Assembly: GCA_048885925.1 (NCBI GenBank)
Contig: JBHLLG010000002.1
Coordinates: 77,569-141,568, forward strand
Length of the DNA: 64,000 bases
Source of the DNA: Candidatus Hermodarchaeota archaeon
GTDB lineage: Archaea; Asgardarchaeota; Lokiarchaeia; Sigyniarchaeales; SOKP01
Reading direction: 5' to 3'
Shown here in pieces: positions 174-58,846 of this stretch. Made by a program: the position numbers and the translations under genes. The notes under the pieces are model-generated. The model was not told where the DNA came from, did not search any database, and saw only the letters and a list, made by a program, of their open reading frames with translations. The number at the start of each line of letters is the position of its first letter. The first letter of the stretch is position 1.

Positions 174-644
174 TTAATCTGTTTCGACTTCATATTCTAG
201 GATTTCACGAATTCTATCACGTAAGTCAAATCTTATAGCAGACATTCCATATGTGGTAATCCCTAATTTTTTTTGAACTGTTTTTGCTTTTAAAGCACCA
301 GGAAGATCTTGTTTATTAGCTATAGCAATAATCTTGGTATTCATATATCGCGAAAACTTCTTATAAATCTCCTTAGTCTTTTCTATGTTATCTTCAGTCG
401 AATCGCATACCAAAACTGTTAATCCTGCTCCTCTTAAAAAATCCTGCCACATGAAATGATAACGTTCTTGTCCCCCAAAATCCCAAATATTAACCTTTTT
501 TCCATTAAGTTTAGAATTCTCAATCTCTAATCCTACTGTTGGTGTTGTTTCATTTGGTATTTCTCGTCCTTGAAGTAAAGATACTAATGATGATTTCCCA
601 ACACTGCTCAACCCTAAAAAACAAATTTTGGTTTTAGTCGAAAG
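174..644 (-). CDS. Arf/Rab-like small GTPase; N-terminus extended to a non-canonical start (CTT 644 or GTT 647)
   Basis: Motifs G1 GLSSVGKS, G2 PTVG, G3 DFGGQ, G4 NKQD, G5 SA. The track start (TTG 611) falls inside G1. The upstream in-frame sequence reads LSTKTKICFLG and is bounded by TGA at 654-656. Confidence 0.85.
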   Translation of the reverse strand, partial: LSTKTKICFLGLSSVGKSSLVSLLQGREIPNETTPTVGLEIENSKLNGKKVNIWDFGGQERYHFMWQDFLRGAGLTVLVCDSTEDNIEKTKEIYKKFSRYMNTKIIAIANKQDLPGALKAKTVQKKLGITTYGMSAIRFDLRDRIREILEYEVETD

Positions 645-902
645 AACCTCAAATCAACCTTTTCTAAATAAACCTTTTTATGTAGAAAAGGCAAATAAAG
701 CTTCAAAAAAGAAAATAATATTCGTATATCATGGGAATATTCCAATAGAATTTAATAATAGTTGAATTTTAAATTTAAAATTTAAAAAAAAAATTCTAAT
801 TTGAACATAAAAATCCTAATTAGATTAACTTTATAAACTATTTTAAAAAAATAATCAAATTAAAATAAGAATATAAGAAAAAATTTCTAAAATAGAGTTT
901 TT

Positions 903-2195
903 TTATGATCCAGTCTCAATTTCTTTGACTATACCTACTGCTACGGTTCTGCCCATATCTCGTACAGCAAATCGACCCATTTCTGGAAATGCTTCATACT
1001 TTTCGAGACACATTTTCTTGATAGGTATTAACTCCACAAGAGCAGATTCATTTTTCTTGAGAAACTTTGGTGAATCCTCAATCACGGCACCAGTCTTTTG
1101 ATCCATCTTTTTAAGCAAGCTGGAAAATTTAGCAGCAACTTGTGCTGTATGAGCATGAATTACAGGAGTATAACCTTGTGCAATCGCAGTAGGATGCCAA
1201 ATTACTATAATCTGCCCAGTCCATTTACCATTTGGGTTGATTACAGTTGGTGGGTCGCTTGGATGGCCAAGACAATCGCCACGGCTAGCATCTGCCATTG
1301 TAATACCTCTAATACTGAATCCTACGTTGTCTCCGGGAATAGCTTGTGGAATTTCTTCATGATGCATTTCTATAGATCGTACTTCTCCTTGGAAACCAGT
1401 GGGCATTATAATAATCTTATCTCCTTTCTTTAAAATTCCAGTTTCTACTCTACCAACAGGAACGACTCCAGTTCCTTTGATTCTATAAGAGTCCTGGATA
1501 GGGAGTCTTAACGGTTTGCCAGTAGGTTTCTCAGGAAGAACAAATTGATCAATTGCATCAATCAACGTTGGACCATCATACCATGGCATTTTGTCGCTTT
1601 TCTTTGAGAGATTTTGCATCTGCATACCTGAACAGGGAACAAAAGGCACATCCTTGAGCTTGAAACCAATATTTTTTAGAAGATCTCCGACAGCTTCTTT
1701 AACTTCATTATATCTTGCCTCAGAATAATCATACACATCAGCTTTATTAACTGCTACAACAATTTGTTTTACGCCTAAAGTTTGAGCCAGATATGCATGT
1801 TCCCGAGTCTGCCCATTAGCGGCGATTCCAACCTCCATCTCACCTTTCTTACCGGAAACAACTAAGATTGCTGCGTCAGCCTGGCTTGCGCCGGTTATCA
1901 TGTTCTTAACAAAATCCGCGTGGCCTGGTGCATCGATTATTGTGAAGTATTTTGATTTAGTTTCAAATTTTCGAAATGCAAGATCGATAGTGATACCTCG
2001 TTGTCTTTCTTCTTTTAATCTATCAAAAACAAAGGCATATGACCATGATTCTCGATCGTATTCTTTCGCAAGTTTTTCTAACTCACGAGCTTCTCTGTCT
2101 GTTACAGCGCCAGTTTCGATTAGTAAAGCACCCATCATGGTACTTTTACCGTGGTCAATGTGCCCTATTATCACAAGATTTAAATGCTCTTTCAT
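903..2195 (-). CDS. tuf: Translation elongation factor EF-1 alpha
   Basis: GHIDHGKST, ERQRGITID, DAPGH, NKAD, GRFAVRDMG motifs; ATG at 2195. Confidence 0.98.
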   Translation of the reverse strand: MKEHLNLVIIGHIDHGKSTMMGALLIETGAVTDREARELEKLAKEYDRESWSYAFVFDRLKEERQRGITIDLAFRKFETKSKYFTIIDAPGHADFVKNMITGASQADAAILVVSGKKGEMEVGIAANGQTREHAYLAQTLGVKQIVVAVNKADVYDYSEARYNEVKEAVGDLLKNIGFKLKDVPFVPCSGMQMQNLSKKSDKMPWYDGPTLIDAIDQFVLPEKPTGKPLRLPIQDSYRIKGTGVVPVGRVETGILKKGDKIIIMPTGFQGEVRSIEMHHEEIPQAIPGDNVGFSIRGITMADASRGDCLGHPSDPPTVINPNGKWTGQIIVIWHPTAIAQGYTPVIHAHTAQVAAKFSSLLKKMDQKTGAVIEDSPKFLKKNESALVELIPIKKMCLEKYEAFPEMGRFAVRDMGRTVAVGIVKEIETGS

Positions 2196-2387
2196 CAATT
2201 TTCATCAATTTCCTTTATTTTTAATTTGTAATGTTTATAAATATTTAATATCAATAATAATTATTTTTATTAGATGTTAATTTTAAATGTTGTTGAATTT
2301 ATATTTTTTACTATATTTAAGCGTAATTATCTTGTATAAATAAGTATCGTTATAAATTTGTGGAAGATTATCTGAGATGCCTTATCT

Positions 2388-2403
2388 AACTTCAAGTGAA
2401 GTT
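2388..2403. promoter_or_regulatory. Palindrome AACTTCA-AG-TGAAGTT between divergent tuf and aor; candidate operator
   Basis: Perfect 7-bp inverted repeat with a 2-nt spacer in an AT-rich intergenic region. Confidence 0.3.
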
Positions 2404-2573
2404 CAACATTTTAAACTATATATTGGTCAAAATCATAAATTGTAATATTCTAGATAAAAAAGTAGTAAAAACGCAATATTTAGAATAAAGAATTTAGAAT
2501 CAAATAAGAAATATAAATGAGATGAAATTTAGCATTATAACAATCAGAATTATTTAAAGATTAAGGTTTTTAT

Positions 2574-4439
2574 ATGGTAAATGGCTATACTGGCAATATT
2601 CTTAGGGTAAATTTGACAGAAGAAAAAATCTCAATTGAAAATCCTGATGAAATTTTTTACCGACGTTATATTGGTGGTGAAGGTTTTGTTGCTTATTATC
2701 TTCTTAAAGAGTTAGAGCCTAAAATAGACCCCCTTAGTCCTAAGAATAAGTTAATTTTTGCTAATGGTCCCTTGACTGGATTTGCGATCCCTGGTACAGG
2801 TCGAAATAGTGTAGGTGCTAAATCGCCTTTAACAGGTGGATTTGGTGAAGCAGAAGTTGGAGGACATTGGGGCGCAGAGTTGAAACACGCTGGATTTGAT
2901 GCGATAATATTTGAGGGTAAAGCAGAGAATCCAGTTTATCTTTGGGTTCACGATGGAGAAGCTGAGATAAAGGATGCAACTTATCTTTGGGGTAAAATTA
3001 CTGGCGAAGCAGAAGAACTTATTAAGAAAGAACTGGATGATAAATTTATTCGTGTAGCTCAAATTGGTCCAGGAGGAGAACGTTTAGTTCGTTATGCGTG
3101 TGTTATTAATGATTTAAGAAATGCTGCGGGGCGTGGGGGAATGGGTGCTGTAATGGGATCTAAAAATCTAAAAGCTGTGGTAGTTAGAGGACATAAAAGA
3201 CTTGAAGTAAAAGATAAAAAAAAAATGAGGAGACTAATAAAGGAGTATTATGATGTAGCGTATAAGCCATATGCAAGTTATTTTGAGCATGGTACAGGAG
3301 GAGGAATGATGGAGAGGTTTGCAGAATCAGGAAATCTTCCGATAAGAAATTTTAGAGATGGTAATTTTTTGGGGGCCAAATCGTTAGATCCAAGTATTAC
3401 GAAAGAAGAAATAAACCTTAAGATGAATGCTTGTTATGCATGTTCGCTTCGATGTAAGAAAGTTGTAGAAATTAGAGAACCATGGAATGTTGATCCTATG
3501 TATGGTGGTCCTGAATATGAATCTATAGCTGCTTTTGGATCAAATTGCGGAATAGATGATATGAAAGCTGTTTGTAAAGCAAATGAGCTATGTAATAAAT
3601 ATTCATTAGATACTATATCTACTGGAGTTTCCATTGGGTTTGGGATGGAATGTTATGAGAATGGAATTTTGTCTGATAAAGATACTAATGGAATAAAATT
3701 AAATTTCGGAAATGCTGAAGCTATGATCCAAATGGTTGAAATGATTGCTAAGCGTGAAGGTTTAGGTGATATTTTAGCTGAGGGTGTAAGAAGGGCAGCT
3801 GAAAAGATTAAAAATGGATCCGAAGAATTTGCAATGCATGTTAAAGGACAGGAGATTCCTATGCATGAACCTCGCTTAAAAAAAGGATTGGGGGTTGGTT
3901 ATACAATTTCACCTACGGGTGCGGAACATATGGCAAACATGCATGATACATCTTTTGCAAGTGAAAGAGCAATAGGCACTCATAGTGCTATAGGTATTTT
4001 GGAACCTCTTGAGCCAGATGATCTAAGTGCAAAAAAAATTCGCATTTTAACTTATTTTACTAATTGGCAAAATTTATCCAATGCATTATTGATATGTTAC
4101 TTTTTACCTTGGGATTATGTTGATATTCCAGAAATGGTTAGAGCTGTAACAGGATGGTATACTTCAGCGTGGGAATTAATGAAAGTAGGTGAGAGAATTA
4201 CAACTATGGCAAGAGTTTTTAATATAAGAGAGGGATTTACAGATAAAGATGATTGGTTGCCTAAAAGATTTTTCAAGCCGACTACTTCAGGAGCTCTTGT
4301 AGACACTCAAATTAATTCAGAAGAATTAAAATATGCAATCAATATATATTATAAAATGATGGGCTGGAGTGATAAGGGTGTACCCACAAAAGTTAAGTTA
4401 GAAGAATTAGATATAAATTGGCTTTCTAAATACCTCTGA
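2574..4439 (+). CDS. aor: Tungsten-containing aldehyde:ferredoxin oxidoreductase family protein
   Basis: GYTGNILRVNLT N-terminus, KSPLTGG, GRGGMGAVMGSKNLKA, CxxCxxxC 4Fe-4S motif, GPEYE, LDTIS. Confidence 0.95.
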   Translation: MVNGYTGNILRVNLTEEKISIENPDEIFYRRYIGGEGFVAYYLLKELEPKIDPLSPKNKLIFANGPLTGFAIPGTGRNSVGAKSPLTGGFGEAEVGGHWGAELKHAGFDAIIFEGKAENPVYLWVHDGEAEIKDATYLWGKITGEAEELIKKELDDKFIRVAQIGPGGERLVRYACVINDLRNAAGRGGMGAVMGSKNLKAVVVRGHKRLEVKDKKKMRRLIKEYYDVAYKPYASYFEHGTGGGMMERFAESGNLPIRNFRDGNFLGAKSLDPSITKEEINLKMNACYACSLRCKKVVEIREPWNVDPMYGGPEYESIAAFGSNCGIDDMKAVCKANELCNKYSLDTISTGVSIGFGMECYENGILSDKDTNGIKLNFGNAEAMIQMVEMIAKREGLGDILAEGVRRAAEKIKNGSEEFAMHVKGQEIPMHEPRLKKGLGVGYTISPTGAEHMANMHDTSFASERAIGTHSAIGILEPLEPDDLSAKKIRILTYFTNWQNLSNALLICYFLPWDYVDIPEMVRAVTGWYTSAWELMKVGERITTMARVFNIREGFTDKDDWLPKRFFKPTTSGALVDTQINSEELKYAINIYYKMMGWSDKGVPTKVKLEELDINWLSKYL

Positions 4440-4491
4440 ATTACGAATTTTCTTAAATAAAGCACAATATTTTTCTTATTTATTATTTTTT

Positions 4492-4944
4492 TTATGTTTC
4501 CAAATTAGAGAAATATTCCCCTTTTAAATCATAAAATAATTCTTCCCTATTTTCTCTTATCAATTGAAAGATTTCATCCATTTCTGTCTTAAAATTGTAA
4601 ATATTTCCTAAAGAATCAGAGATCTCTTCTATAGCTTTATCACTTTTAAATTTTTGAAATACTAATTCAAGATCATAAATATTGACGGAAGTCTCTTTAA
4701 AAAAGTCTAAAAGATGGTGCAAATAAAGCGCTTTAATATAACTTTTCTTAAGTTTATTTTTTTCATTAAAATATTTTAATTGTTGAACAAAGATGCTATC
4801 ATTATTTTTTTCAAAATCTATGATATTATCTCTATAAAATGTCCAATTAAAACCATAATCTAAAGCAATATTTACAATATTTGCTACATCTTCATTAATA
4901 CCCGCTTTTTTCGCCCATTTGATATGAATTAACCAATTGGGAAT
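4492..4944 (-). CDS. Hypothetical protein of 150 aa (xPNWLIHIKWA...LHHLLD, possibly metal-binding); probable ATT start
   Basis: The frame is open from ATT at 4944 (in-frame TGA two codons upstream) to the stop at 4492; the track shows only the last 76 aa. SD-like AAAAGTGA lies 6 nt before the ATT. Confidence 0.7.
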   Translation of the reverse strand: MPNWLIHIKWAKKAGINEDVANIVNIALDYGFNWTFYRDNIIDFEKNNDSIFVQQLKYFNEKNKLKKSYIKALYLHHLLDFFKETSVNIYDLELVFQKFKSDKAIEEISDSLGNIYNFKTEMDEIFQLIRENREELFYDLKGEYFSNLET

Positions 4945-5064
4945 TTTTAATCACTTTTCATTTATGTATTTTATTTTAAGATAAAAAAAAATAAAAAATC
5001 ATAGAATATTAAATTAAATTAAGAAATAAAAAAAAAAATAATTAATACCCGAGTTATCAATACC

Positions 5065-5883
5065 ATGGTAAAGAGCAAAACAAAATTCCCAAGAGAAGGA
5101 GAGTTTGTTATTGCTAAAGTAACAGAGATACAAGATCAGTATGTGTACGTAGATTTAATTGATTATGAAGGTTTGGAGTCAGAACAATGCGCAAAAGGTA
5201 TGATACATGTATCAGAAATAAGTTCACGCTGGATTAAAAATATTCGCAATTATGTTCGAGTTGCTCAAAGAATTGTTCTAAGAGTATTGAGAGTAGATCC
5301 AATTAAAGGTCACATTGACCTATCATTAAGGCGAGTCAACTCTGCTCAAAGAGAGATTCGCCTTAAGGAATGGAAATATGCTTTAAAATTAGAAAATTTA
5401 CTACAATTCCTTCTAGACACAGAAGTTATTGATATGACTCTTGATGAAGCATACAATTTAATAGGCTTTCCTGTCTTAGAAGAATTTGATTCTTATCAAG
5501 AAGCAATTGAAAGTCTGAAAGAGAATGGAGAAGAAATACTCGCTGATTTAGAAATATCAGATGATATCATAAGTGTTTTTTTGAAAATAATAGATGAAAA
5601 TGTAAAAATTTCAACGGTAAGTATTAGCGGTAAAATTAAATTAACATTCAATTCAGCAAATGGGATAGATCAAATAAAAGAATCATTAATAGAAGCGTCC
5701 AAAGTAATCAAACCGAAAAAAACAAGAAATATTGCTATTCATTATATTGCAGCACCCTTTTATAGGTTAGAGGTAGTTTCAAAAGATTATTTAGATGCCG
5801 AAAACATTTTAGCAGATGCATTAGAAATAATTGAACATAAAGCTCAAAAATATGGTGGAACTTATGAATTTATTCGAGATTAA
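5065..5883 (+). CDS. eif2a: Translation initiation factor 2 alpha subunit
   Basis: FPREGE S1 domain, SEISSRWIKNIR, GHIDLSLRRV, AAPFYRL. Confidence 0.96.
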   Translation: MVKSKTKFPREGEFVIAKVTEIQDQYVYVDLIDYEGLESEQCAKGMIHVSEISSRWIKNIRNYVRVAQRIVLRVLRVDPIKGHIDLSLRRVNSAQREIRLKEWKYALKLENLLQFLLDTEVIDMTLDEAYNLIGFPVLEEFDSYQEAIESLKENGEEILADLEISDDIISVFLKIIDENVKISTVSISGKIKLTFNSANGIDQIKESLIEASKVIKPKKTRNIAIHYIAAPFYRLEVVSKDYLDAENILADALEIIEHKAQKYGGTYEFIRD

Positions 5884-21469: not shown

Positions 21470-22726
21470 TTATTCTACTCGTAGATCAAGACTCTTTATA
21501 GCATTATAACAAATATCTATAACTCCATTTAGGTTTTCAGCGCTACACAATTCAGGAGTATCCTTTTTCGAATGGATATATTTTGAATCTTTATTTGATA
21601 AAAAACAACTTACCTGAAAATCTTTCTTTTCAGCTTTTTTTGTGAAGGCACGAAAAGATAAATGATCACTTCCAGATCCGAATGCCATCTTTGGACTATC
21701 AGAATTGATTTTTTGTTGCATATCTGAGGCTTTTAAAACATCATTTAAATTTTTGTTTAATTTCTTTTTCTTAAGTAATCCAGTCTCATCAATTAAACCT
21801 ATATATGTACCCACCATATCAACGTTAATATTGTATGATTTGTTTAAGTCATAATCGTAATCTATTTCTTCTAAATGTTTAGAACAAAAGTGCTTTGAGC
21901 CCCATATCCCCATTTCTTCTGCCCCACACCATAAAAAGATTACATCTGTTCTTTCAAGAGGATTTTTCTTTACTAATTTAGCTAATTCTAATAAAATTGC
22001 TGTCCCTGAAGCATTATCTATCGACCCAATAGATTCATTTGTTTTTCTATTAAAAAAAGTAATAAAGAGTTCACTCATAATGATAATTCCAACAATAAAG
22101 GATATTGTTCTTATTAATAAGTATACAAACTCGATGGAAATTGCTGTAAATAAAATAACAATTGACCAAATGGAGAGAATAATGTTTATTAGAAAATAAG
22201 AAAGAAGAAGGAAAAGAATTGAAAGAAGTAAAGGTTTCATCATTTTTGTTGGAAAAAGACTTGAAACAGAATCATAATGAGCTGAAAAAATGATAACTGG
22301 CCTCTTAGGATATAAATCTTTTGCTTGTATGGTGGTGTAAAGATTTTTTGATTCTCTTTTCTTACCAATATATAAAATCTTGGATTGATCAAACAGAAAC
22401 TTTCCTCCGGATAACAGAATTACAATGAATAACCCATCAAGAGGAAGGATTATCCATGTAAAGAGAGGATTTAATAATAAAATTTGACAAATGAGAATGA
22501 AGGTAAAAAACCATAAAAATAGTAATTTCCTTAATTTTGTTGTTGTTGTAGTCCATTTAAAAGATTCTATGATGGGTTGAATATTCTGTTTATCTAATTC
22601 TTTGATGATATAATTAATTGCTTTAGTTTCGCCTTCAGTTGCAGCATACCTTTTAAATGCTAACGTTTTCACGTGGTTAATAGCAGCATTTTCATCATAC
22701 AATTTCAAATCAGAAATATATCTCAC
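21470..22726 (-). CDS. M28 family zinc peptidase with transmembrane insertions
   Basis: SAHYDS, GSIDNASG, GAEEMG, SDH, IHSKKD motifs; the start may be ATT at 22717. Confidence 0.88.
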   Translation of the reverse strand: MRYISDLKLYDENAAINHVKTLAFKRYAATEGETKAINYIIKELDKQNIQPIIESFKWTTTTTKLRKLLFLWFFTFILICQILLLNPLFTWIILPLDGLFIVILLSGGKFLFDQSKILYIGKKRESKNLYTTIQAKDLYPKRPVIIFSAHYDSVSSLFPTKMMKPLLLSILFLLLSYFLINIILSIWSIVILFTAISIEFVYLLIRTISFIVGIIIMSELFITFFNRKTNESIGSIDNASGTAILLELAKLVKKNPLERTDVIFLWCGAEEMGIWGSKHFCSKHLEEIDYDYDLNKSYNINVDMVGTYIGLIDETGLLKKKKLNKNLNDVLKASDMQQKINSDSPKMAFGSGSDHLSFRAFTKKAEKKDFQVSCFLSNKDSKYIHSKKDTPELCSAENLNGVIDICYNAIKSLDLRVE

Positions 22727-22784
22727 TTTAATAGTAAATTTTTTTTATAAAATTGATAATTGTTAATAAGGATATCAATGAAAA

Positions 22785-41372: not shown

Positions 41373-42653
41373 ATGACGATAAGGGATAGATTGACAAAAT
41401 CTGAAGAAAAAATCTATACTATTCTTAATGATGATGATTTAGTCTTTAATAATTTGGGTCTTACAAAAGAACAGCTTCTTTTAAAAGAACTAAGAAATAT
41501 CGCTAAAGAATACATGGAAGTTGAAAAATTAAAAAAATCCTTTATAAAAGTTATCTTAAATAACCTTGATAATTTAAATTTTTCAGAATTTATTGATTTT
41601 CCCAAATTTTACATTAAAGAAAAGTTTTTAAAAAAAAAAGTATCTTCCTCAAACATACAGGGATTAAATGTTGTTAGTGTTGATGGGAGTTCAGTTACTA
41701 AGAAATATATGAATATTGATTTTTCATTTTTAAAAACTATTGCTGTTAAATATTACTTTAAAAAAAACAATGCAGCCAAAATTATTTATTATCCTGATCT
41801 AAATGGTTTCAATAATTACCTTGTACAAGCAAATTTTCTCAATCAAGATGAGAATGCTGTAGAAACTAAAATCTCAATCGATATGAATTTTATGGAAATT
41901 AATTTATTAAATAACATGATAAGGAAATCCTCTGAGATTGAAATGATAATAATTGATGGATCGATTGTTATTATGCCGATAAATTTATTATTTTCCAAAG
42001 ATCCCGAAATTTCAAGAAAATACGATAAACTTTTAAAGGAATATCATGAATTATATTCAAGTTGTAGAGAAAAAGGAATATTATTAATTGGATCAATCAA
42101 AGATACGAGATCAGCTGCGTTATCACATCTATTAAGTGATTCTATACAATTATTAAAACCTAGTCATTCAAAGTTAACTGATTTTATAAAAATGAATTAT
42201 CATACAGCAATAGAATTTTTCTCAGATATTGACTTATTTAATCGATTATTAAAAAAATATGAGAGAAGTTGTATTTTCAATTGTAAGAGAGAAATTGACA
42301 AAATTAGAGATACTGGAATCAAAAAAGAAATCCCCTACTATTTTCCTCTATCATTTTATGCATTCTATATAAAAACAGCACACTATGATACACCTTGTAG
42401 AATAGAATTCTTCATGGATGAGAGCCACTCTTTAAGAAATGCCTCAGAGAAAGCAGACTTAATTTCTTCCATATTATTGCCTATGTCAAGTTTAAATGAA
42501 CATTATGGTTTACCAATTCCTCAAATTGAGGCTCATAAAAGAGCTACTTTTAAACCAAAAGAAGTGGATTTATTATTAAATAATTTAACAAGAACATTAA
42601 GCATAAATGGTATTGAATTATTAGAGAAAAGAAGAAATAGAAGACCTTTCTAA
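41373..42653 (+). CDS. nurA: NurA family 5'-3' nuclease
   Basis: SVDGSS, MEI, IIDGSI, GSIKD, YGLPIPQIEAHKRA. Confidence 0.85.
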   Translation: MTIRDRLTKSEEKIYTILNDDDLVFNNLGLTKEQLLLKELRNIAKEYMEVEKLKKSFIKVILNNLDNLNFSEFIDFPKFYIKEKFLKKKVSSSNIQGLNVVSVDGSSVTKKYMNIDFSFLKTIAVKYYFKKNNAAKIIYYPDLNGFNNYLVQANFLNQDENAVETKISIDMNFMEINLLNNMIRKSSEIEMIIIDGSIVIMPINLLFSKDPEISRKYDKLLKEYHELYSSCREKGILLIGSIKDTRSAALSHLLSDSIQLLKPSHSKLTDFIKMNYHTAIEFFSDIDLFNRLLKKYERSCIFNCKREIDKIRDTGIKKEIPYYFPLSFYAFYIKTAHYDTPCRIEFFMDESHSLRNASEKADLISSILLPMSSLNEHYGLPIPQIEAHKRATFKPKEVDLLLNNLTRTLSINGIELLEKRRNRRPF

Positions 42654-43345
42654 TGAATACTATATTTAAGTCTATTTAAAATAATATCTTCAAAAAAGAT
42701 ATGCTTTTTTTCCACTACTTCATTTCTGTATCCAAGATTTCTAATATTTCTATAAAAATCTAATAAATTAGTTCTACTTGATGTAATAACATAGATGTAA
42801 TGTTTAGCTTTCAAATCTAGATAATATTTAGCAGAATTGAGAAATTTAATTAGAATTTCATATCCTTTTATTCCTCCATTCCAACTGTAATCAATTTTCA
42901 TTTTGTTATTATTTTTCTTAATAAGATCTGATGATGGTAAATATGGAGGATTGAACACAATTATGTTAAAAGAATGTTTTAAACTTTCTGGAAATGAATT
43001 AAACAAATCTGAACACAAAAATTCTATTTGATTATCAATATTATTTCGTTTTTCATTTAATTTCGCACATTTTATTGCATCTTCTAGTATATCAGAGGCA
43101 TATATCTTTGGATTAAAATTTATATTGTCTTTTTTAATTAATTGTAAAAAGATAGCTATTATTCCTGTTCCAGTACCTAAATCTAAAATTTTCTTAATTT
43201 CAGTTAATTTGATTCCATCAAAATACATTTGATTAATATTTTGTTTAAAATAGTCAATTAATAAATATGTGTCATCAGAAGGAGCGTAAACATTTTCAAA
43301 ATCATAATCAATTACTGGATCGGGTAAAAGAGAAATTATTATCAC
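42650..43345 (-). CDS. HemK2/PrmC-type glutamine methyltransferase
   Basis: VYAPSDDTYLL, LDLGTGTG, NPPYLP, WNGG; the start may be ATT at 43336. Confidence 0.92.
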   Translation of the reverse strand: MIIISLLPDPVIDYDFENVYAPSDDTYLLIDYFKQNINQMYFDGIKLTEIKKILDLGTGTGIIAIFLQLIKKDNINFNPKIYASDILEDAIKCAKLNEKRNNIDNQIEFLCSDLFNSFPESLKHSFNIIVFNPPYLPSSDLIKKNNNKMKIDYSWNGGIKGYEILIKFLNSAKYYLDLKAKHYIYVITSSRTNLLDFYRNIRNLGYRNEVVEKKHIFFEDIILNRLKYSIH

Positions 43346-43350
43346 TTTTT

Positions 43351-45406: not shown

Positions 45407-45712
45407 TTATTTTATAGAAACAGAATTTAATTTAAGGTGCTCCTTTCCAATTATTAAAGTTTTTTTAGAATTACCTAATTTTACTTCTACTAAATAACAT
45501 CGACCTCTCTGACCTATAACTGTACCAGTTCGTCCATGATATCTTGAATGGGGCATTCCTCGACTATGTTGAGAAGAATCAGTAATGATATCGACCTTAT
45601 CATTAATCTCATAATCAATTAAATATTTTTCAACAGAACCTAAGCCTCTATCACGAATATTTTTCCTATGTTTATGTCTGGTTTTCTTGCGATATCCCTT
45701 ATGTAGAGTAAT
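45407..45712 (-). CDS. rpl21e: 50S ribosomal protein L21e with non-canonical ATT start (missing from ORF track)
   Basis: xTLHKGYRKKTRHKHRK..RG....L..Y...DKVDI....H.RGMPHSRYHGRTGTVIGQRGRCY.VEV..G...KTLII..EHL, between pus10 and rpoF. No in-frame ATG/GTG/TTG upstream of the conserved N-terminus. SD AGGTGG 6 nt before the ATT. Confidence 0.95.
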   Translation of the reverse strand: MTLHKGYRKKTRHKHRKNIRDRGLGSVEKYLIDYEINDKVDIITDSSQHSRGMPHSRYHGRTGTVIGQRGRCYLVEVKLGNSKKTLIIGKEHLKLNSVSIK

Positions 45713-45804
45713 TTTAAGCCACCTTATAATTATATTAGTAGAAATATGAATTATTGTTTATTTATTTTTTGATTTTAGGGGATTTAGATTAGGTATATTT
45801 TATT

Positions 45805-52356: not shown

Positions 52357-53421
52357 TTAAATAAAAATTAGTATCATTATAACAATGTTATAAGAAATAT
52401 TTGCTGTAATAGTACTGAATATATTTCGATTCGATACTTCAAAAACAACACCTAATATTGTAAATACGATAAAATTTAAAAAGAAAAAACTTACTCCCAT
52501 TGGAAATGAAAATAATAGCATAATAAGGGAGTATGCTAAGGCAACTATAAGAATTACATAGATATCATTTTTAAATTTTTGTTTTAATGTATGGTGTAAA
52601 ACTCCTCTAAACACAATTTCAGAAGAAATTACCCCAGTACAAAGTAAAACCGTTAATAGTATAATCCACAATATATCGGCATTTAAAATAATCTGATTCT
52701 GCTCTTCAATACTTGCTTCTATGTTAAAAAAATCTAAACCAGCATCAGAAATGAATTGGAGAAAAGAAGCATTTAAAAAATTTATCAAAACTAGAATTGT
52801 TGTGCCTAGAATTCCAATAATTATAGCAATTATAATTTTTTTTGAATTAAAATTAAAACCAAGTTTAGAAAAACTATGCTTTTTATTATAGATATACCAG
52901 ATTGGATACAATCCAAATACTAATTCAGGAATTTGACTTAAAAGGATTAATTGGATATTCATATCATAGTCATCAGAACCTAACTGGAACGATATAATAG
53001 TAAAGAGCAAAAAAAATACAATCACTAATATGTAAATACACGTTCCAAATACATTTATACCTTCTTTTAAATTCCAAGTATCTTTCTTTAGTAAAAATTT
53101 TTGTTCAAGCTCAAGCTTTTTACTTGTAAAAATTAGTCCCGGTTTCTTTTGAGCTAGAGCTTTTTTAACTTCAGATAATTTTTCTAATTCCGCATTACAT
53201 ATTGGACACTGATCTAAAATAGTTGAGGTTATGATAGATCCACAACTAGGACATTTTCTTGAAATATCTAACTTTTGAGCAGTCATAATTTTCGGTGTCT
53301 TTTTTGTTGGTTCAATCTTTAAGACTAATTTACCACATTTAGGACAATAAGCCTTATCTTCTTCAATTACAGACCCACAATAAACACAATATTTTATCTT
53401 TCTCTCAATATCTTTTGACAT
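52357..53421 (-). CDS. Double zinc ribbon + CPBP-like membrane domain (probably inactive protease)
   Basis: CVYCG..CPKCG and CPSCG..CPIC; SSEIVFRG in place of EExxxR, and both His motifs are missing (AYSLIM, TANISYN). Confidence 0.75.
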   Translation of the reverse strand: MSKDIERKIKYCVYCGSVIEEDKAYCPKCGKLVLKIEPTKKTPKIMTAQKLDISRKCPSCGSIITSTILDQCPICNAELEKLSEVKKALAQKKPGLIFTSKKLELEQKFLLKKDTWNLKEGINVFGTCIYILVIVFFLLFTIISFQLGSDDYDMNIQLILLSQIPELVFGLYPIWYIYNKKHSFSKLGFNFNSKKIIIAIIIGILGTTILVLINFLNASFLQFISDAGLDFFNIEASIEEQNQIILNADILWIILLTVLLCTGVISSEIVFRGVLHHTLKQKFKNDIYVILIVALAYSLIMLLFSFPMGVSFFFLNFIVFTILGVVFEVSNRNIFSTITANISYNIVIMILIFI

Positions 53422-53554
53422 AACTCTAATTCTAAATAAAGATCTTTTTCATAATAATTTTGTTAAATATATAAACTAAAAATTATATAATTTTTGCTTA
53501 CATATTATTCATTTAATTGAATATCAATATTGGTAATTGGAAAGAGAATTTGTA

Positions 53555-53932
53555 ATGTTAAAAAAAATTTTCAAGAATAGAATTAATGAAATATATGATA
53601 AATATAAAGATAAAAACACTTTAATTGCTGATGACATGGCTAACTTTTTAGGGTTGGAATCATTAGGTGTCTGGAAAGTTCGTGGAAACGGAGTTTTATT
53701 ACTTACACAAGAAGAATTGTTTTTTGGGATTTGGAAACCTAAAAAAGAACTAAGTATACCTGTCAAATCTATTAATGAGTTTACAAATCCTAAATCACAT
53801 TTATACAGGTCAGTATTTAAGCCTCTTTTAAAAGTAATATTTAGAAATGAAAATGGAGAAAAAGATTCGGCTGCATGGTATGTACGTAATTTAGAAAAAT
53901 GGAATGAAATTCTTAATGATTTAATAAATTAA
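53555..53932 (+). CDS. Hypothetical protein, probable PH-like fold
   Basis: ANFLG.ES.G..VRGNGVLLLT..ELFF...ELSIP...I..L.V.F......DSAAWYV....W. Confidence 0.65.
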   Translation: MLKKIFKNRINEIYDKYKDKNTLIADDMANFLGLESLGVWKVRGNGVLLLTQEELFFGIWKPKKELSIPVKSINEFTNPKSHLYRSVFKPLLKVIFRNENGEKDSAAWYVRNLEKWNEILNDLIN

Positions 53933-53934
53933 GG

Positions 53935-55155
53935 TTAATAATTGAATTTTTTCTTTTCAATATCTATTAACTCTCTTTCACTTTCTTGCTTGATTCTTTT
54001 AACAGGTTTAAACTCATCAAATGGTGTTTCACAGACCCAACACATATTTTCCAAACTACTTAATGCTTTTGAACATTTATTACAGTATAGAGCTTTACAT
54101 TCTGGACATATATATGTTATTCTACCAACTTCTCCTTTGCAGACTAAGCAAATTCCTTTTTCTTTCGAAATGGACACTTCTTCTTCAGTGATTTTTCGTG
54201 GTTTTGTAAATATTCCTAAAATATTAGATTTATCAACTTCGCTTTCTAAGGTGTCATCTAATAAAACTTGTTTTTTAATACTTGTTAAAATTTTATTCAA
54301 CATCAATAATAGAACAGTGACAAGTAGAAAGCCAAATATCAATTCTGTTAAAATAAATAAACTAAATTCAAAAACAATTAGTGCATATAAAAATAATATC
54401 ATGACAATACATATTAGACTTAAACATATTACCCCTATAGTAATCCAATAATGTTTTGCTTTAACTAAAAACTCTGATTTAATAACTATTGGAGACAGAG
54501 AAATTAAACCTCCTAGAATACAGAGAATAGGTGAAAGAGGTAAAAAAATTGCGATATTAAGAGTTCTTAAATCTCCATTAAAAAGGATTATACTTACACC
54601 AAATAAAATTAATCCAAACAATAAGAGAGAAGAGACTGCTTTGAATTCAAGGCTAGATATTCTCGTTAGATAAAAAAAGATAAACATCGTGGATATATTA
54701 CTGTATATAAATATTAAAAGCCAAGAATAGCCTGATAAGGAAGGTAAAAAAATTCTAAATAAAAGTAATCCAGATTGAATAATTGTAAGAAGGTATTTAG
54801 TCTGTTTCTGTATTAATTCAAAAGTGAAAAAAAATATTCCGAATCCAATAGAATATGCAATTTCTCCGAATACATAAATCATCATATGTTCTGGTGTAAA
54901 TCCTTGATCAAAATCAACATATAGTGCATTATTAATATAGGTTCCAGAATATGACAGACTAAATAAGTAAAAAGCCAAAAAATATAATGCATAGCCTATT
55001 ATATAACTTGTAAAACCATATAAAAAGATTTTTTCATCATGACGTTCCATGCGTTTGCCCTTAATAAGATATATAATACTACTAGCGAAAATTATTGTAA
55101 GTGCTACACCCCATAAGGTACGTTCTACAGGATCCCATCCCAGGACTTCTACCAC
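53935..55155 (-). CDS. Multi-TM protein with C-terminal RING-like C4C4 zinc finger (Lokiarchaeia-type)
   Basis: About 9 TM helices followed by KPRKITEEEVSISKEKGICLVCK..YICPEC..YC..C...ENMCWVC. Confidence 0.8.
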   Translation of the reverse strand: MVEVLGWDPVERTLWGVALTIIFASSIIYLIKGKRMERHDEKIFLYGFTSYIIGYALYFLAFYLFSLSYSGTYINNALYVDFDQGFTPEHMMIYVFGEIAYSIGFGIFFFTFELIQKQTKYLLTIIQSGLLLFRIFLPSLSGYSWLLIFIYSNISTMFIFFYLTRISSLEFKAVSSLLLFGLILFGVSIILFNGDLRTLNIAIFLPLSPILCILGGLISLSPIVIKSEFLVKAKHYWITIGVICLSLICIVMILFLYALIVFEFSLFILTELIFGFLLVTVLLLMLNKILTSIKKQVLLDDTLESEVDKSNILGIFTKPRKITEEEVSISKEKGICLVCKGEVGRITYICPECKALYCNKCSKALSSLENMCWVCETPFDEFKPVKRIKQESERELIDIEKKKFNY

Positions 55156-55156
55156 T

Positions 55157-56413
55157 TTAAATTACCTCTCTTTTATTTGATTTTTTAAGATTTTTTTTTG
55201 TTATATTAGATAGTTCCATAAGCAACAATCCATGATAATATGAAATGCTGTCAAAAGAACTTTCCCCTAAATCTATTTTTTCAGCATGAACTAAAGCCAT
55301 CTGAGCGTTAAGGGATGCTCTCATTAAAAGTTCAATACCTTTATATATTAAATTAGGACTCCATGTTCCATTTTGGGGATTGGACCACCAAACAGGGCAT
55401 GAATAGATTCCGCGATCATAAAAGTATCTGGCTGTATTATAGTAATTCTCAATTTCCCAATCAATTGTTAAATCTAAAGTGTCTATTAAATTCATTAAAT
55501 TATTCAAGCTTTTCATTATTTTCCAATAATATTTATGAACATTATTATCTGGATGGTCCCAAAGAGGATATGGAATATTAGCTTTAAGATCTTCATAAGT
55601 GGTGCTCCAACTTGACTCTCTTGGAACAATTTTTTTCTTTGCAAATGGAAAATATAAACCTAAATCAGAAATAAATGTTATGTTAATTTTGTCAGTTTCA
55701 TTTATTAATTCAAGGGTTTTACCTAAGAAGGTTTTTTCGTAATTTTTAATATGATATCCAAATGTTTCACCATCTAAAGCAGTTATAACATAGGTAGGAT
55801 TACTCTTATCTTTATCTTTATGTAACGTTATAATATCTTTTACAAAATCTTTTGCTTTAATACTCTTAAAAGCAATTTTATTGCTTAAAATATCGTCTCT
55901 AAAGAATAATTGAAGTCCGTTAGGAGACATATAGATTTTATCATAAGGCCATTCAATTGGACATGCTATTCCACTCATAATTACCCATTTATATCCTAAT
56001 TGGCGAATATATTTAGCAACTCCACCAGATATCGCCAATTCTGGAGGAAAAAAACCCTTTCTTTCCCAACGACCAAATTCTCTTTTATTTAATTCTTCAT
56101 TCATTTGAATTTGATGCTGAGCTTCTTTTTTGGGAATTAGAGGAAGAATAGGATGAAATTTTGCGGTACCAACAATTTCAATTTTACTTTCAGAAACCAA
56201 ATTTTTCAATAACTCCATAGTATCAGATAATCCAAATTCATAAAATAATTCAATAAGAACACCACTAATATTTAAACAAAATTTAGTATTTTCATTATCC
56301 TCAAATAAGGAAAATAATGGTTTATAACAATCCTTATTAATATTTCTTAAAACATTTAGATCTTGAGTGGGAGGTTGGTATATGTGAAGTAAAGGAGCCC
56401 AATAAGTAGTCAA
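55157..56413 (-). CDS. Glycoside hydrolase family 57 protein
   Basis: LHIYQP, HPILPLI, FFPPE nucleophile, ALDGETFG acid/base, SSW; TTG start with GGTGA. Confidence 0.92.
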   Translation of the reverse strand: MTTYWAPLLHIYQPPTQDLNVLRNINKDCYKPLFSLFEDNENTKFCLNISGVLIELFYEFGLSDTMELLKNLVSESKIEIVGTAKFHPILPLIPKKEAQHQIQMNEELNKREFGRWERKGFFPPELAISGGVAKYIRQLGYKWVIMSGIACPIEWPYDKIYMSPNGLQLFFRDDILSNKIAFKSIKAKDFVKDIITLHKDKDKSNPTYVITALDGETFGYHIKNYEKTFLGKTLELINETDKINITFISDLGLYFPFAKKKIVPRESSWSTTYEDLKANIPYPLWDHPDNNVHKYYWKIMKSLNNLMNLIDTLDLTIDWEIENYYNTARYFYDRGIYSCPVWWSNPQNGTWSPNLIYKGIELLMRASLNAQMALVHAEKIDLGESSFDSISYYHGLLLMELSNITKKNLKKSNKREVI

Positions 56414-56528
56414 GCCATTTTCACCAGTTATTTATAATTTACTTTGTATCTTTTATTAATAGTGTTTAAAAAATAGAATTATAAGCTTTATTTAATTTCT
56501 ATGATATCATAATTATTTGATATTTATA

Positions 56529-56903
56529 ATGAAACCTAAAGTATATATAATTTCTACTAATAAAAATACAGAAAATGATCTTATAGATGCTTTAAAGGCA
56601 CGTTTTAAATTGAATTAGATCGCATAAAAGGATCTATTTTAGTAATTAAAGAATACGCTATTAGTGAATTGAAAGAATATTTTGAAGACCGTAGTGACCG
56701 TGAGCAAATTAATATTTCTTATATTGAATGGTCATTTTGCTATGACTGAATTTTTAAAACCCTTTCGCAAAGCAACAAAAATATCTTTTAGACAACTTTC
56801 TACAATGTTTCAGCTTAGTTTTCCTAAAATTTTGACTGGTATGATTGCTGCAAAATTGCACAAATCAAATTTTAAAAGCGTAATTGAATTTAAGTCTACC
56901 TAA
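56529..56903 (+). pseudogene. Possible decayed gene remnant
   Basis: ATG 56529 gives MKPKVYIIS..KARFK; protein-like sequence continues in the -1 frame (IELDRIKGSILVIKEY..WSFCYD*) and then meets several stops. Confidence 0.3.
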
Positions 56904-56945
56904 TAGTTTTTTATTAAGCTCAAAATATAGATAAAAGCTAACGTT

Positions 56946-58061
56946 TTATTTTTCTATTATAGTTTCTTTTATTGCTGTGCCGAAATGAGTAGCTCCTGGT
57001 CCAATATGAACTAACACTTCATCACCTATTCTTATATCGACCACTGATTTAGCGTTCCCATTAGTATCAACTAATCGATTTGTTTCAGCATTTTGACAAA
57101 TACAGCTAATTGGAATTATTTTACCTTCTTTCAATACTTCTAATTCAAATCTAAGCATAGGTCTAGTTTCAATTTTAATTCTTCCAATAGTAACAACTCT
57201 TGCTACACCTTTATTTGAAACAGCTAAAACTTTTTTACCTCCCTTCAATTCGCTTAAATAATTTGTTTTATATACTTTTTCGGGATCATCATCAGGGACT
57301 AATATATAGGAAGAAACATCACCAGCGTTAACACGAAATGGTCTAGACGCTACGAATTCTGTCTCTATCGTTTCAGAATGAATTAAACAGAATCCAGCTG
57401 CTGTTGACCCTACTAAAAGTCCCTCTCCTATATTAAAGAGTGATGTAGTATCAATACATACTCTTTCAGCCTCAGAAATATTCTCAATCTTTACTATTTT
57501 TGCTCTAGTAAGTTTAATTTGAAAAGCATTATGGATTAAGTTTTTAATCTCAAGAATATCATCTAACTTCTTAACTGTTATAAGTAAACCATCCACACCA
57601 ATTTCTAATATTTTTAACATTAATTCAGCTTCCTTTATTGTGTCAACTGCGGCAATTAGTTCTGTATCATATGAATGCATTTCAGCAATAAGATTCTCAA
57701 AAGGAATTATTCTCCAATCTTTAGCAGAAACAATTATAAAATCTATCAAATTTTTTTTCGAAAGTTTAATTATATCTCTCTCATCTTCTTTGCTTTTCAA
57801 ATCAATAAAAATTCCAGCACTTTTATAAGGAAATCTCTTGCTTATTGAATTTTCCTCTAATTCTTTTTTATTATCATAAACCAAATATTTGGAAGGAATC
57901 TTAAAGTCTCTTGAATAAAGAATTACTCTATCAATTTTTTCAAATTCCTTAAAAGTTTCTTGAGAAACTAAAAAATTTAAAAAATTTTTATTAAAAGCCT
58001 CCTGAACTAATTCCTTGAAATTGTTACTTTTAATTTCGAAGTTTAATATCACTTTTTTCAT
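56946..58061 (-). CDS. aroB': 3-dehydroquinate synthase II (archaeal)
   Basis: DWRIIPFENLIA, LEIGVDG, RVCIDT, GEGLLVGS, RPFRVNAG, KIETRP, QNAET, HFG..I.E.I.EK. Confidence 0.95.
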   Translation of the reverse strand: MKKVILNFEIKSNNFKELVQEAFNKNFLNFLVSQETFKEFEKIDRVILYSRDFKIPSKYLVYDNKKELEENSISKRFPYKSAGIFIDLKSKEDERDIIKLSKKNLIDFIIVSAKDWRIIPFENLIAEMHSYDTELIAAVDTIKEAELMLKILEIGVDGLLITVKKLDDILEIKNLIHNAFQIKLTRAKIVKIENISEAERVCIDTTSLFNIGEGLLVGSTAAGFCLIHSETIETEFVASRPFRVNAGDVSSYILVPDDDPEKVYKTNYLSELKGGKKVLAVSNKGVARVVTIGRIKIETRPMLRFELEVLKEGKIIPISCICQNAETNRLVDTNGNAKSVVDIRIGDEVLVHIGPGATHFGTAIKETIIEK

Positions 58062-58195
58062 ATTTATTGGTCTACAAAACTTTTTTGATGTGAATTATTT
58101 TATTATATTATATCAAATATTATTAAATTTTTAAGTTAGAAAAATCATATAATTCATAAATCAGACAATAATAAAATTATGGAGTTGAACCGGTT

Positions 58196-58846
58196 ATCGG
58201 GTTAAAGAAAAAGTTATTTCCAAGAAAAAGCAAGGAAAAAGACGACCTTGTGGCTCGGGCTAAAGGACATATCCATAAATTAAATTTGATGAATAAAAAT
58301 TACACTAAACGTGCTGAAATAAGCAGAAAAAATGCAAAAATAGCTTTGAAGCGTGGTGAAAAAGATCGTGCTAAGAATTATCTAATACAATATAAAGCTT
58401 ACCAAGCAAAAGTGGATCGGGCTACTAATATTAGAGGAAAAATCGAACGTCAAATTCAAGCAATAGAAGAAGGAATGCTTATTTCACAAACAGGGGATGT
58501 GATGGAAGGTATAAGAGATGAATTAGAATTTATCGCAACAAAAGCATCACCTGTAAAAGTAGCTGAAATAGCTGAGGATTCTGAGGCTTATGTAGCAGAA
58601 ATTGAAGAGGCAGCAGATATTTTAGCGGGAGATCCCGAAATTGATTTAGCAATTGATGTAACCGAGGAATTGAATCAACTGGAGACAGAAATGTTGCTTG
58701 ATCAAGGAGGAAAAATGCCTGAAATTCCTTCAGATGACCTTCAATACATCCCTGAGTACGATCTTGAAGAAGAAGAAGCTGAAGTTAGTTCAAAGGAAAA
58801 ATTAAAAGATGAAATTGAGAAATTAAGGAAAGAATTAGAAGGATAA
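58196..58846 (+). CDS. ESCRT-III (Snf7 family, Vps20/32/60-like) protein; probable ATC start
   Basis: Basic N-terminal helices (AKIALKRGEKDRAKNYL), EELNQLE, acidic C-terminus ending in a MIM1-like helix (EIEKLRKEL). In-frame extension xGLKKKLFPRKSKEKDDL follows SD GGAGTTGA. Confidence 0.85.
   Translation: MGLKKKLFPRKSKEKDDLVARAKGHIHKLNLMNKNYTKRAEISRKNAKIALKRGEKDRAKNYLIQYKAYQAKVDRATNIRGKIERQIQAIEEGMLISQTGDVMEGIRDELEFIATKASPVKVAEIAEDSEAYVAEIEEAADILAGDPEIDLAIDVTEELNQLETEMLLDQGGKMPEIPSDDLQYIPEYDLEEEEAEVSSKEKLKDEIEKLRKELEG

Follow-up and report, generated by a model that had tools for sequence, protein, structure and literature searches.

Probable use of AUU, AUA and AUC as start codons behind strong Shine-Dalgarno motifs in a Lokiarchaeia-type Asgard family

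Where does translation begin in genes whose conserved N-terminal sequence precedes every ATG, GTG or TTG in the frame? The question is raised by six genes in the window, a stretch of 64,000 nucleotides from an Asgard archaeal metagenome-assembled genome of 181 contigs, with a G+C content of 29% and an estimated contamination of 4.4%. A preliminary description proposed that start codons in this lineage are chosen by the position of the Shine-Dalgarno (SD) motif, with ATT, ATC, CTT or GTT used at four sites and a called GTG lying inside the SD at two more; all six sites read as claimed. Here we examine these sites in related genomes and across the whole genome. Canonical starts are ATG, GTG and TTG, and ATH stands for ATT, ATA and ATC. 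The SD motif GGAGGTGAT and a spacing of 4-9 nt were learned from unambiguous ATG genes, and canonical starts peak at a spacing of 6-7 nt. The 3' end of the 16S rRNA, read in one genome of the same genus, is GGATCACCTCC.

Six candidate start sites in the window

The coding region of ribosomal protein L21e (45407..45712, minus strand) yields 101 aa from ATT and matches Pfam Ribosomal_L21e with E=2.6e-29. Residues 1-59 of its stop-to-stop frame (45407-45733, minus strand) are devoid of ATG, GTG and TTG, and the first canonical codon comes no earlier than residue 60. The ATT (45710..45712) is residue 8, and profile positions 3-98 match residues 10-102 of the frame. It is preceded at a spacing of 6 by the SD AAGGTGG (45719..45725), of which AGGTG is retained in most orthologues. 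The aligned codon in 21 other genomes of the genus is ATA in 10, ATC in 5, ATT in 3, TTG in 2 and CTG in 1, never ATG; eight genomes of another family carry ATG (5) or TTG (3). When the ATT start is disallowed, the gene is too short for ORF-length cut-offs.

A hypothetical protein with the N-terminus x-PNWLIH (4492..4944, minus strand; 150 aa from ATT), for which no Pfam match was found, has orthologues in 19 of the 23 genomes of its genus and in three of four genomes of a second family. Its ATT (4942..4944) stands two codons past an in-frame TGA and 74 codons upstream of the next canonical codon, behind the SD AAGTGAT (4950..4956, spacing 6), which was read in the sequence and its orthologues. 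Among 16 other readable loci of the genus the aligned codon is ATT in 11 and ATA in 3, and the remaining 2 have ATC or ATA with one extra Ser codon; all three orthologues of the second family carry ATG there.

The ESCRT-III (Snf7) protein (58196..58846, plus strand) has 216 aa from the ATC at 58196..58198, and a GTG at 58250 lies 18 codons further on. The SD GGAGTTGA (58181..58188, plus strand, spacing 7) is common to the orthologues bearing ATC, ATA or GTG. The N-terminus GLKKKLFPRK is kept in 23 same-genus genomes, in which the aligned codon is ATG in 15, ATC in 5 (this genome included), GTG in 2 and ATA in 1. The Pfam Snf7 match covers residues 34-188.

The Arf/Ras-like small GTPase (174..647, minus strand; 157 aa; Pfam Arf/Roc/Ras match) occupies a frame that begins after the TGA at 656-654. 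No canonical codon occurs before residue 15, a TTG at 611 that falls within the P-loop GLSSVGKS, and position 1 of the Ras/Roc profile matches residue 9. Two starts had been suggested, CTT 644 and GTT 647; the CTT position varies among orthologues, and the GTT (645..647) is the most likely start, judging from the comparison of related sequences. Orthologues are present in 23 of 23 same-genus genomes, with GTT in 21, GTA in 1 and ATT in 1, always 1-5 codons past an in-frame stop (2 codons in 20 of 23). The third base of this GTT differs in 4% of genomes; the figure for codons 2-8 is 26%. The SD-like AAGGTTGAT (653..661, minus strand), 6 nt before the GTT, shows a column variation of 0-13% across the 23 genomes, compared with 13-57% farther upstream. 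In other species, public orthologues have the N-terminus M-V-L-S-T-K or M-E-V-L-S-T-K. GTT, which differs from GTG at one base and from ATG at two, is an exception to the single-mismatch rule described below; it is not enriched genome-wide at 5-7 nt behind strong SDs (2/197), so this start rests on the conservation of one gene.

In the two remaining genes the GTG called as the start belongs to the SD AAGTGA(T/G) itself; 5 nt past the motif comes an ATT in the same frame. The M28 peptidase (21470..22717, minus strand; Pfam Peptidase_M28) has its likely true start at the ATT 22715..22717, behind AAGTGAG (22722..22728), which contains the GTG 22726-22724 taken as the start by ORF finders. Of 28 family homologues, 21 have ATT at the aligned position, 4 have ATG and 3 another codon; one orthologue (L152) has GAC in place of the GTG, and in a paralogue (L171) a TAG separates the GTG from the ATT. 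The HemK/MTS-type methyltransferase (42650..43336, minus strand; Pfam MTS) likely starts at the ATT 43334..43336. Its SD AAGTGAT (43341..43347) begins 3 nt past the TAG of the upstream gene and holds the called GTG 43345. The aligned codon in 23 same-genus genomes is ATT in 11, ATA in 4, ATC in 1, ATG in 4 and other or misaligned in 3, and the upstream position is GTG in only 11 of the 23. The in-frame GTG may still serve as a second start of both genes in this genome. Genome-wide, 86 genes have a called GTG inside an SD; 5 nt further on, 23 of them have ATG, 11 TTG and 11 ATT.

The conservation check suggested with the preliminary description was run on orthologues from about 22 sister genomes. 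At all six sites the SD is conserved and the aligned codon is ATT, ATA or ATC, or GTT in the small GTPase, with ATG in its place in some genomes of the same genus and of other families.

A signal bound to frame and spacing

For the genome-wide analysis we collected strong SDs within gene 5' regions without a nearby in-frame ATG, GTG or TTG. Past such an unused SD, the in-frame codon at 5-7 nt is ATH in 92 of 197 cases. Out of frame the count is 18 of 427 (Fisher p=3e-36), and for in-frame codons at 10-24 nt it is 119 of 1040. Comparing the same two distances codon by codon, ATT stands at 55/197 versus 59/1040 (p=8e-18), ATA at 30/197 versus 44/1040 (p=1e-7), ACG at 5/197 versus 4/1040 (p=0.007) and ATC at 7/197 versus 16/1040 (p=0.06); no enrichment of abundant non-cognate codons such as AAA or TTT was found at 5-7 nt. 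The ATH peak lies at spacings of 5-7, as for canonical starts, and at spacing 6 ATT accounts for 33 and ATA for 16 of 81 codons. Behind 4-nt SDs the ATH share is about 3%, near background; it climbs to about 40% behind SDs of at least 6 nt. Behind the latter the codons at 5-7 nt are ATG (41), ATT (23), ATA (18), TTG (15), GTG (4) and ATC (4). This dependence of the enrichment on frame, spacing and SD strength, together with the orthologue codons, supports the proposed SD-driven relaxation of start choice. TTG starts are indeed frequent, as had been stated; GTG, described in the same way, trails both ATT and ATA in the count of SD-led starts.

An estimated 90 or so genes (about 3% of the genome) appear to have SD-led ATH starts, a figure built on an ORF set specific to this analysis and on background subtraction, by a method that sees only starts led by an SD. 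Essential genes with ATH starts are those for L21e, uS10, L7Ae, TFB and aIF1. The preceding stop and the ATH are separated by a median of 2 codons. Between the ATH and the first canonical codon the median is 23.5, and this stretch reads as coding sequence, at 0.257 per codon versus 0.270 after canonical starts. The onset of the Pfam domain precedes the first canonical codon in 20 of 20 tested candidates, a biased sample because they were chosen by eye from 52; the domains reaching upstream include the TFB zinc ribbon, GTPase P-loops, SDR, ABC ATPase, L7Ae and IMPDH. What is observed directly of the ATH starts is their position, frame, spacing, conservation and domain completeness. In a comparison that drew on 400-800 kb from four other genomes, the signal is strong in the genome's own family, marginal in a sister family (10/46 versus 30/270, p=0.045) and not found in two other Asgard samples.

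A reassignment of ATH in the genetic code was considered and rejected: ATT and ATA are still among the commonest internal codons, and translations with Ile give normal Pfam matches.

How the starts may be read

We conclude that AUU, AUA and AUC are very probably genuine and common start codons in this Lokiarchaeia-type (Promethearchaeia) family, and that about 90 genes, the six flagged sites among them, start in this way. ACG, CUG and, in one gene, GUU would be rare starts alongside them; CTG is seen in rpl21e orthologues, and ACG is enriched genome-wide. Such starts would operate 5-7 nt (up to 9) past an extended SD complementary to GGAUCACCUCC at the 3' end of the 16S rRNA. The strong duplex would fix the P site, and the canonical initiator tRNA (CAU) would be admitted even where it mismatches the codon, mostly at the third base. 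We infer that ATH is decoded as Met by this tRNA, probably with lower initiation efficiency, and the likely cause would be AT-biased mutation together with a lowered stringency linked to the weak ATT start of aIF1.

It is very unlikely that these genes start instead at the first downstream ATG, GTG or TTG, the upstream frame and its ATH being chance features of AT-rich leaders. The genome is poor in G+C, ATT and ATA are frequent in leaders (5.7% and 4.2% of in-frame codons), and the Snf7 match of ESCRT-III needs none of the 18 extra residues. However, the enrichment is limited to one frame and one spacing, the extra codons vary like coding sequence and have coding codon usage, and sister genomes carry ATG at the aligned codon; downstream starts would also cost the GTPase its P-loop, TFB its zinc ribbon and L21e its profile from position 3 onward. 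That the ATH codons are miscalls of ATG, or mark decaying pseudogenes, has almost no probability left, even in an assembly of 181 contigs with some estimated contamination: the same codons, in intact frames, turn up again in over 20 species genomes that were assembled independently, and essential genes are affected. At the rpl21e ATT, where a miscall could have overturned the claim, contigs from 4 runs in 4 studies carry the same letters, with no alternative at 45710-45712. Among the runs listed as containing the locus there was no RNA run.

A somewhat less remote reading accepts the starts and ascribes them to elongator Ile-tRNA, admitted by a strong SD and giving an N-terminal Ile, or to initiation largely independent of the codon. 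All three Ile codons are used, the GTPase keeps its GTT, and the dependence on SD strength is extreme. We nevertheless consider it improbable, given that the enriched codons are only single-mismatch neighbours of AUG (ATT, ATA, ATC, ACG), to the exclusion of the most abundant codons; that ATH exchanges with ATG, TTG, CTG and GTG at orthologous positions, the classical initiator-tRNA set; and that the initiator tRNA gene is canonical (A1:U72, three G:C pairs, CAU anticodon).

Known systems, aIF1 and significance

AUU, AUA and AUC figure as start codons in NCBI table 11, and E. coli infC and pcnB are rare bacterial genes that use such codons. In S. aureus, according to the part of the literature available to us, four genes do so (infC, cvfC1, ccpN and citZ). 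The proposed starts share with these the single-mismatch neighbours of AUG and the dependence on SD strength, but bacterial genomes have only a few such genes compared with about 90 here, where SD-led starts at GTG are fewer than those at ATT or at ATA, ribosomal proteins and TFB are included, and the machinery consists of archaeal aIF1, aIF1A and aIF2, not IF3. The AT-rich genomes of mitochondria and Mollicutes also accept AUA, AUU and AUC starts (NCBI tables 2, 4 and 5). Their translation machinery is reduced, and mitochondria have a modified tRNA-Met and no SD, whereas here the SD appears essential and ATH stays an ordinary Ile codon inside genes.

The gene for aIF1 itself starts with ATT in 21 of 21 same-genus genomes. 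In all 9 genomes of genera g14 and g12 it has an Ile codon there and lacks a canonical alternative. Eight sister-family genomes have TTG, GTG or ATA, never ATG; among 16 other Asgard genomes, ATG is found in 13 and ATA in 2. The SD-to-start spacing is long (9-11 nt). Inspection of aIF1 residues, which had also been suggested, brought no interpretable change to light. The poor start context of eukaryotic eIF1 is tied to autoregulation, and by analogy with it and with the AUU/AUA start of infC, aIF1 may be a fidelity factor regulated through its own weak start. The resemblance lies in the conserved non-canonical start, and the long spacing is a difference. In archaea, destabilisation of complexes on non-AUG codons has been reported for aIF1 (PMC6237735). 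The literature searched yielded no paper on weak-start autoregulation of aIF1 in archaea. We infer a link from the non-canonical starts to aIF1/eIF1 stringency, as the preliminary description did. Considerably more tentative is the idea of a family-wide low-stringency regime in which AUU and AUA are standard behind long SDs, set and held by infC-like feedback on aIF1. If so, weak-start autoregulation of the start-codon proofreader would be convergent or ancestral across bacteria (IF3), archaea (aIF1) and eukaryotes (eIF1), and the approximately 90 genes, among them those for ribosomal proteins, TFB, ESCRT-III and small GTPases, would form a regulon whose output follows the level of aIF1.

With ATH starts behind strong SDs, standard gene callers limited to ATG, GTG and TTG would cut many protein N-termini in genomes that are searched for eukaryotic signature proteins, ESCRT-III, Arf/Ras GTPases and tubulins among them. 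The predicted mis-annotation of Asgard N-termini is visible in the GTPase orthologue: of its 120 best public predictions, 59 are missing some or all of the first strand and the P-loop. An ATT start has been noted in one Asgard tubulin, AtubA of the Kariarchaeaceae, whose deposited protein is too short according to its authors (PMC13394414) and was also lengthened by a second laboratory (PMC13371889), so that its N-terminus has been repaired manually twice. In the parts of these sources available to us, this is a single gene of the Heimdallarchaeia, termed rare, with no genome-wide or lineage-wide claim. Rare ATT and ATA starts are already known; their use on this scale by an archaeal lineage seems not to have been described before. 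Archaeal initiation employs the eukaryote-type factors aIF1, aIF1A and aIF2, and a lineage with relaxed third-base discrimination and a weak-start fidelity factor would be a natural comparative system for how start-codon stringency is set, and for its evolution towards the strict AUG rule of eukaryotes.

Codon use behind Shine-Dalgarno motifs

The source genome (G000; 3.9 Mb in 181 contigs, 29% G+C) contained no detectable 16S rRNA gene of its own and the anti-Shine-Dalgarno sequence was therefore taken from a genome of the same genus, in which the 16S 3' end reads GGATCACCTCC. The window spans 77569-141568 of contig C2. The reference set for the Shine-Dalgarno (SD) motif comprised 1366 genes with an ATG as the first start, at most 6 codons past the upstream stop. 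Pieces of GGAGGTGAT are 5-11× enriched upstream of these genes, and matches of 5 or more bases in a row are most frequent 4-9 nt ahead of the start, counted from the A of GGTGA, with 183 hits at the peak vs 14 at the control position. A review has taken SD motifs in the cultured Lokiarchaeon to be 'not prevalent' (PMC7531240).

The preliminary description proposed that SD position drives relaxed start selection in this lineage, and the genome-wide counts bear this out. Among 3183 ORF-genes, SDs with 5 or more matched bases in the 5' zone (strong SDs) were followed by an in-frame canonical codon (ATG, GTG or TTG) within 13 nt in 355 cases and were not in 208. For these 208, the in-frame codon at a spacing of 6 was ATT in 33/81 and ATA in 16/81, and at spacings of at least 9 ATT made up 1-8% (spacings with more than 30 codons). 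In frame at 5-7 nt vs 10-24 nt, ATT was found at 55/197 vs 59/1040 (p=8e-18), ATA at 30/197 vs 44/1040 (p=1e-7), ACG at 5/197 vs 4/1040 (p=0.007) and ATC at 7/197 vs 16/1040 (p=0.06); none of the abundant non-cognate codons was enriched between the same intervals. As a frame control on the same SDs, ATT, ATA and ATC (collectively ATH) occupied 92/197 positions in frame vs 18/427 out of frame (p=3e-36). ACG, a near-cognate at the second position, may be a rare extra start codon. A raw motif count made without ORF context, by comparison, had no discriminating power in the source genome (775 for SD, 5-7 nt and ATW vs 819 for 11-13 nt).

The ATH excess rises with SD strength. The in-frame codons at 5-7 nt behind SDs of at least 6 nt were ATG 41, TTG 15, GTG 4, ATT 23, ATA 18, ATC 4, ACG 4 and other 43; behind 5-nt SDs, ATG 98, TTG 31, GTG 5, ATT 38, ATA 18, ATC 4 and other 130; and behind 4-nt SDs, ATG 296, TTG 95, GTG 14, ATT 70, ATA 35, ATC 17 and other 691. 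After background subtraction the ATH share of SD-led starts is about 40%, 23% and 3%, respectively, and the same arithmetic gives about 90 putative ATH-start genes, a figure that depends on our own ORF set.

The 92 ATH candidates lie in 89 genes, at a median of 2 codons past the upstream stop and 23.5 codons ahead of the first canonical codon. Codon usage between the ATH and the canonical codon scores 0.257 per codon, on a par with 0.270 for true N-termini. Of the candidates, 52 gain at least 20 codons, and 20 of these were picked by eye for recognisable motifs and are thus a biased sample; in all 20 the Pfam match starts ahead of the first canonical codon (in two only marginally), and in 14 the first 22 residues include profile position 1-5. 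They include three small GTPases, an SDR, an ABC ATPase, a GPN-loop ATPase, IMPDH, AOR and L7Ae. Core information-processing genes also occur among the ATH-start candidates: transcription factor B (C79:3649, + strand, ATT), whose zinc ribbon at residues 22-61 lies upstream of the first canonical codon, only at residue 75; ribosomal protein uS10 on contig C1, with ATA here and in the same-genus genome G006 and ATG in the sister family; and L7Ae (C2:72, + strand), with ATT here and ATG in family f4. An orthologue look-up of the 89 candidate genes against sampled DNA returned mostly paralogues, leaving about 9 informative pairs.

Probable start sites in the window

Re-reading of the sequence at all six flagged sites agreed with the preliminary description. 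The frame of rpl21e (ATT 45712, - strand) has no ATG, GTG or TTG from the upstream stop to residue 60, because of which the gene is missing from the ORF list (at least 60 aa). The ATT stands at frame residue 8, and the Pfam L21e profile aligns from residue 10 over positions 3-98 of its 101. At the aligned start, 21 other genomes of the genus have ATA (10), ATC (5), ATT (3), TTG (2) or CTG (1) and never ATG, with AGGTG kept upstream in most of them; one further same-genus genome has ATG. Other genera of the family carry ATG 5 (one codon-shifted), TTG 1, GTG 1, ATA 2 and ATT 1, the eight genomes of sister family f2 carry ATG 5 and TTG 3, and outside the family the codon is canonical in 16/16 genomes. 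At 45710-45712 no alternative letter was seen in contigs from 4 runs in 4 studies, one run possibly being the source sample. None of the runs listed was an RNA run holding the rpl21e stretch. Among 51 close relatives from public data (L359-L420), a set that overlaps with these genomes, the start turns over among ATA 15, ATC 7, ATT 4, CTG 3 and TTG 19, with ATG in just 3. CTG stands at the aligned start behind AGGTGC in several same-genus genomes (loci L007, L373, L376 and L387).

In the small GTPase (GTT 647, - strand), the first canonical codon, TTG 611, falls within the P-loop, and position 1 of the Ras/Roc profile aligns six residues ahead of it. Across 23 genomes the aligned codon is GTT in 21, GTA in 1 and ATT in 1, preceded by the near-invariant AAGGTTGAT. 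Only 4% variation is seen at the third base of GTT, and codons 2-8 vary by 14/10/26% at positions 1/2/3, like the codons that follow (14/5/29%). Public orthologues from other species begin M-V-L-S-T-K, M-A-L-S-T-K or M-E-V-L-S-T-K. Judged from the sequence of this single gene, GTT would be the start. The codon is never GTG in the 23 genomes.

The PNWLIH gene has its probable start, ATT 4944 (- strand), two codons past a stop, and its next canonical codon comes 74 codons on. Its alignment, which left out one contig-edge locus and two fragments, had 17 readable loci with ATT in 12 (the source genome counted), ATA in 3 and a one-codon-shifted ATC or ATA in 2; three orthologues in family f4 have ATG. 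The ESCRT-III gene (ATC 58196, + strand) has its codon 7 nt after GGAGTTGA and a conserved N-terminus, GLKKKLFPRK, in 23 genomes. At the aligned start these genomes have ATG in 15, ATC in 5, ATA in 1 and GTG in 2.

For the hemK-like gene (ATT 43336, - strand) and the M28 peptidase gene (ATT 22717, - strand), the GTG called by the ORF finder indeed lies within AAGTGA(T/G), with an in-frame ATT 5 nt on. This arrangement is shared with a class of 86 genes whose first canonical codon is a GTG inside the SD; there the codon 5 nt on is ATG in 23, TTG in 11 and ATT in 11. The fourth codon of M28 in 28 family homologues is ATT in 21, ATG in 4 and other in 3, with the GTG absent at locus L152 and a TAG between GTG and ATT at L171. 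For the hemK-like gene in 23 genomes it is ATT in 11, ATA in 4, ATC in 1, ATG in 4 and other or misaligned in 3, and the GTG position holds GTG in only 11/23. Both genes may make dual use of GTG and ATT.

Elsewhere in the window, the EF-1alpha ORF (903-2198, - strand; protein MKEHLNLVIIGH...) was given a TTG start with ATG as the next codon (2193-2198); of the two, ATG 2195 is more likely to be the start.

Initiation factor aIF1 and initiator tRNA

The source genome has a single aIF1 (SUI1) gene, located outside the window (C24:8656-8973; locus L301:1426-1743). It has no ATG, GTG or TTG start, and an ATT lies two codons past an in-frame TGA TAA, behind AAGGTTGTGAT. This ATT is found in 21/21 readable same-genus genomes, and in 9/9 genomes of genera g14 and g12 an Ile codon stands there and no canonical codon is available. 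The eight genomes of sister family f2 have TTG 4, GTG 1, ATA 2, GTG or ATA 1 and ATG 0. In 16 other Asgard genomes we found ATG 13, GTG 1 and ATA 2, the ATA standing 6 nt behind AGGAGG in two distant families, f11 and f17. The codon is likewise ATG in f19 (G075) and in two genomes of f4. Some family genomes carry a second, ~62% identical aIF1-like copy (G023:C58, G007:C18, G083:C2 and G115:C23), one of which contains two in-frame TAA codons.

The conserved ATT looks like the infC-style weak-start control of a fidelity factor, and aIF1 is reported to make initiation complexes less stable on mRNA without AUG (PMC6237735). A tie between the weak aIF1 start and relaxed initiation is a tentative and rather doubtful proposal. 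In the aIF1 residues, differences from other Asgards, e.g. the segment past the basic loop and KAKK-CASGGT, are common to the source family and its sister family, LQGDHR is intact, and no difference could be interpreted as a change in stringency.

The initiator tRNA-Met gene (C24:31211-31314, - strand, outside the window) has a 25-nt intron at non-canonical position 40/41. The tRNA it encodes is canonical: A1:U72 is present, the anticodon stem carries three G:C pairs and the loop reads CUCAUAA. Aragorn without introns found just 12 tRNAs genome-wide and with introns gave a noisy list; a second tRNA-Met call, on C4, was not credible.

Spread in the family and consequences for annotation

Sampled DNA of four other genomes was counted likewise, as a description rather than a test given their small number and relatedness. 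ATH at 5-7 nt vs 10-24 nt was 10/24 vs 18/125 (p=0.004) in G006 (same genus; 400 kb, 30% G+C), 10/46 vs 30/270 (p=0.045) in G031 (sister family f2; 800 kb, 31% G+C), 3/59 vs 14/315 (not significant) in G032 (f4; 400 kb, 53% G+C) and 2/13 vs 12/85 (not significant) in G075 (f19; 400 kb, 42% G+C). Convincing single cases in G031 include an FtsX-type permease with ATA 6 nt after GAGGTGAT. The trait is therefore strong in the source family and weak in the equally AT-rich sister family, and it was undetected in the f4 and f19 samples.

The turnover at rpl21e, together with a GTPase GTT that is never GTG, points to a strong mutation bias towards AT or to selection that favours a weak start. The family may tolerate ATH starts because of mutation pressure towards AT, because its aIF1 level is lower or for some other reason.

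Starts at ATT, ATC and ATA are part of the prokaryotic code table and serve a handful of genes in bacteria, as a rule downstream of an extended SD (PMC13009471). For Asgard archaea the one mention found concerns a single gene, a Heimdallarchaeial tubulin with a 'rare ATT start codon' (PMC13394414; for the same tubulin see also PMC13371889), and full-text searches gave no genome-wide or lineage-wide report, paywalled papers and preprint supplements aside. Near-cognate starts as such are thus known already; their scale in this Asgard family, as read from genome sequences, appears to be new.

The consequence for annotation is N-terminal loss in public predictions of the GTPase orthologues. Among the best 120 of these, with lengths including 128, 134, 137, 142, 145, 147, 150, 154, 157-160 and 173 aa, 46 have no room for GxxxxGK(S/T) and 13 more lose the first strand.
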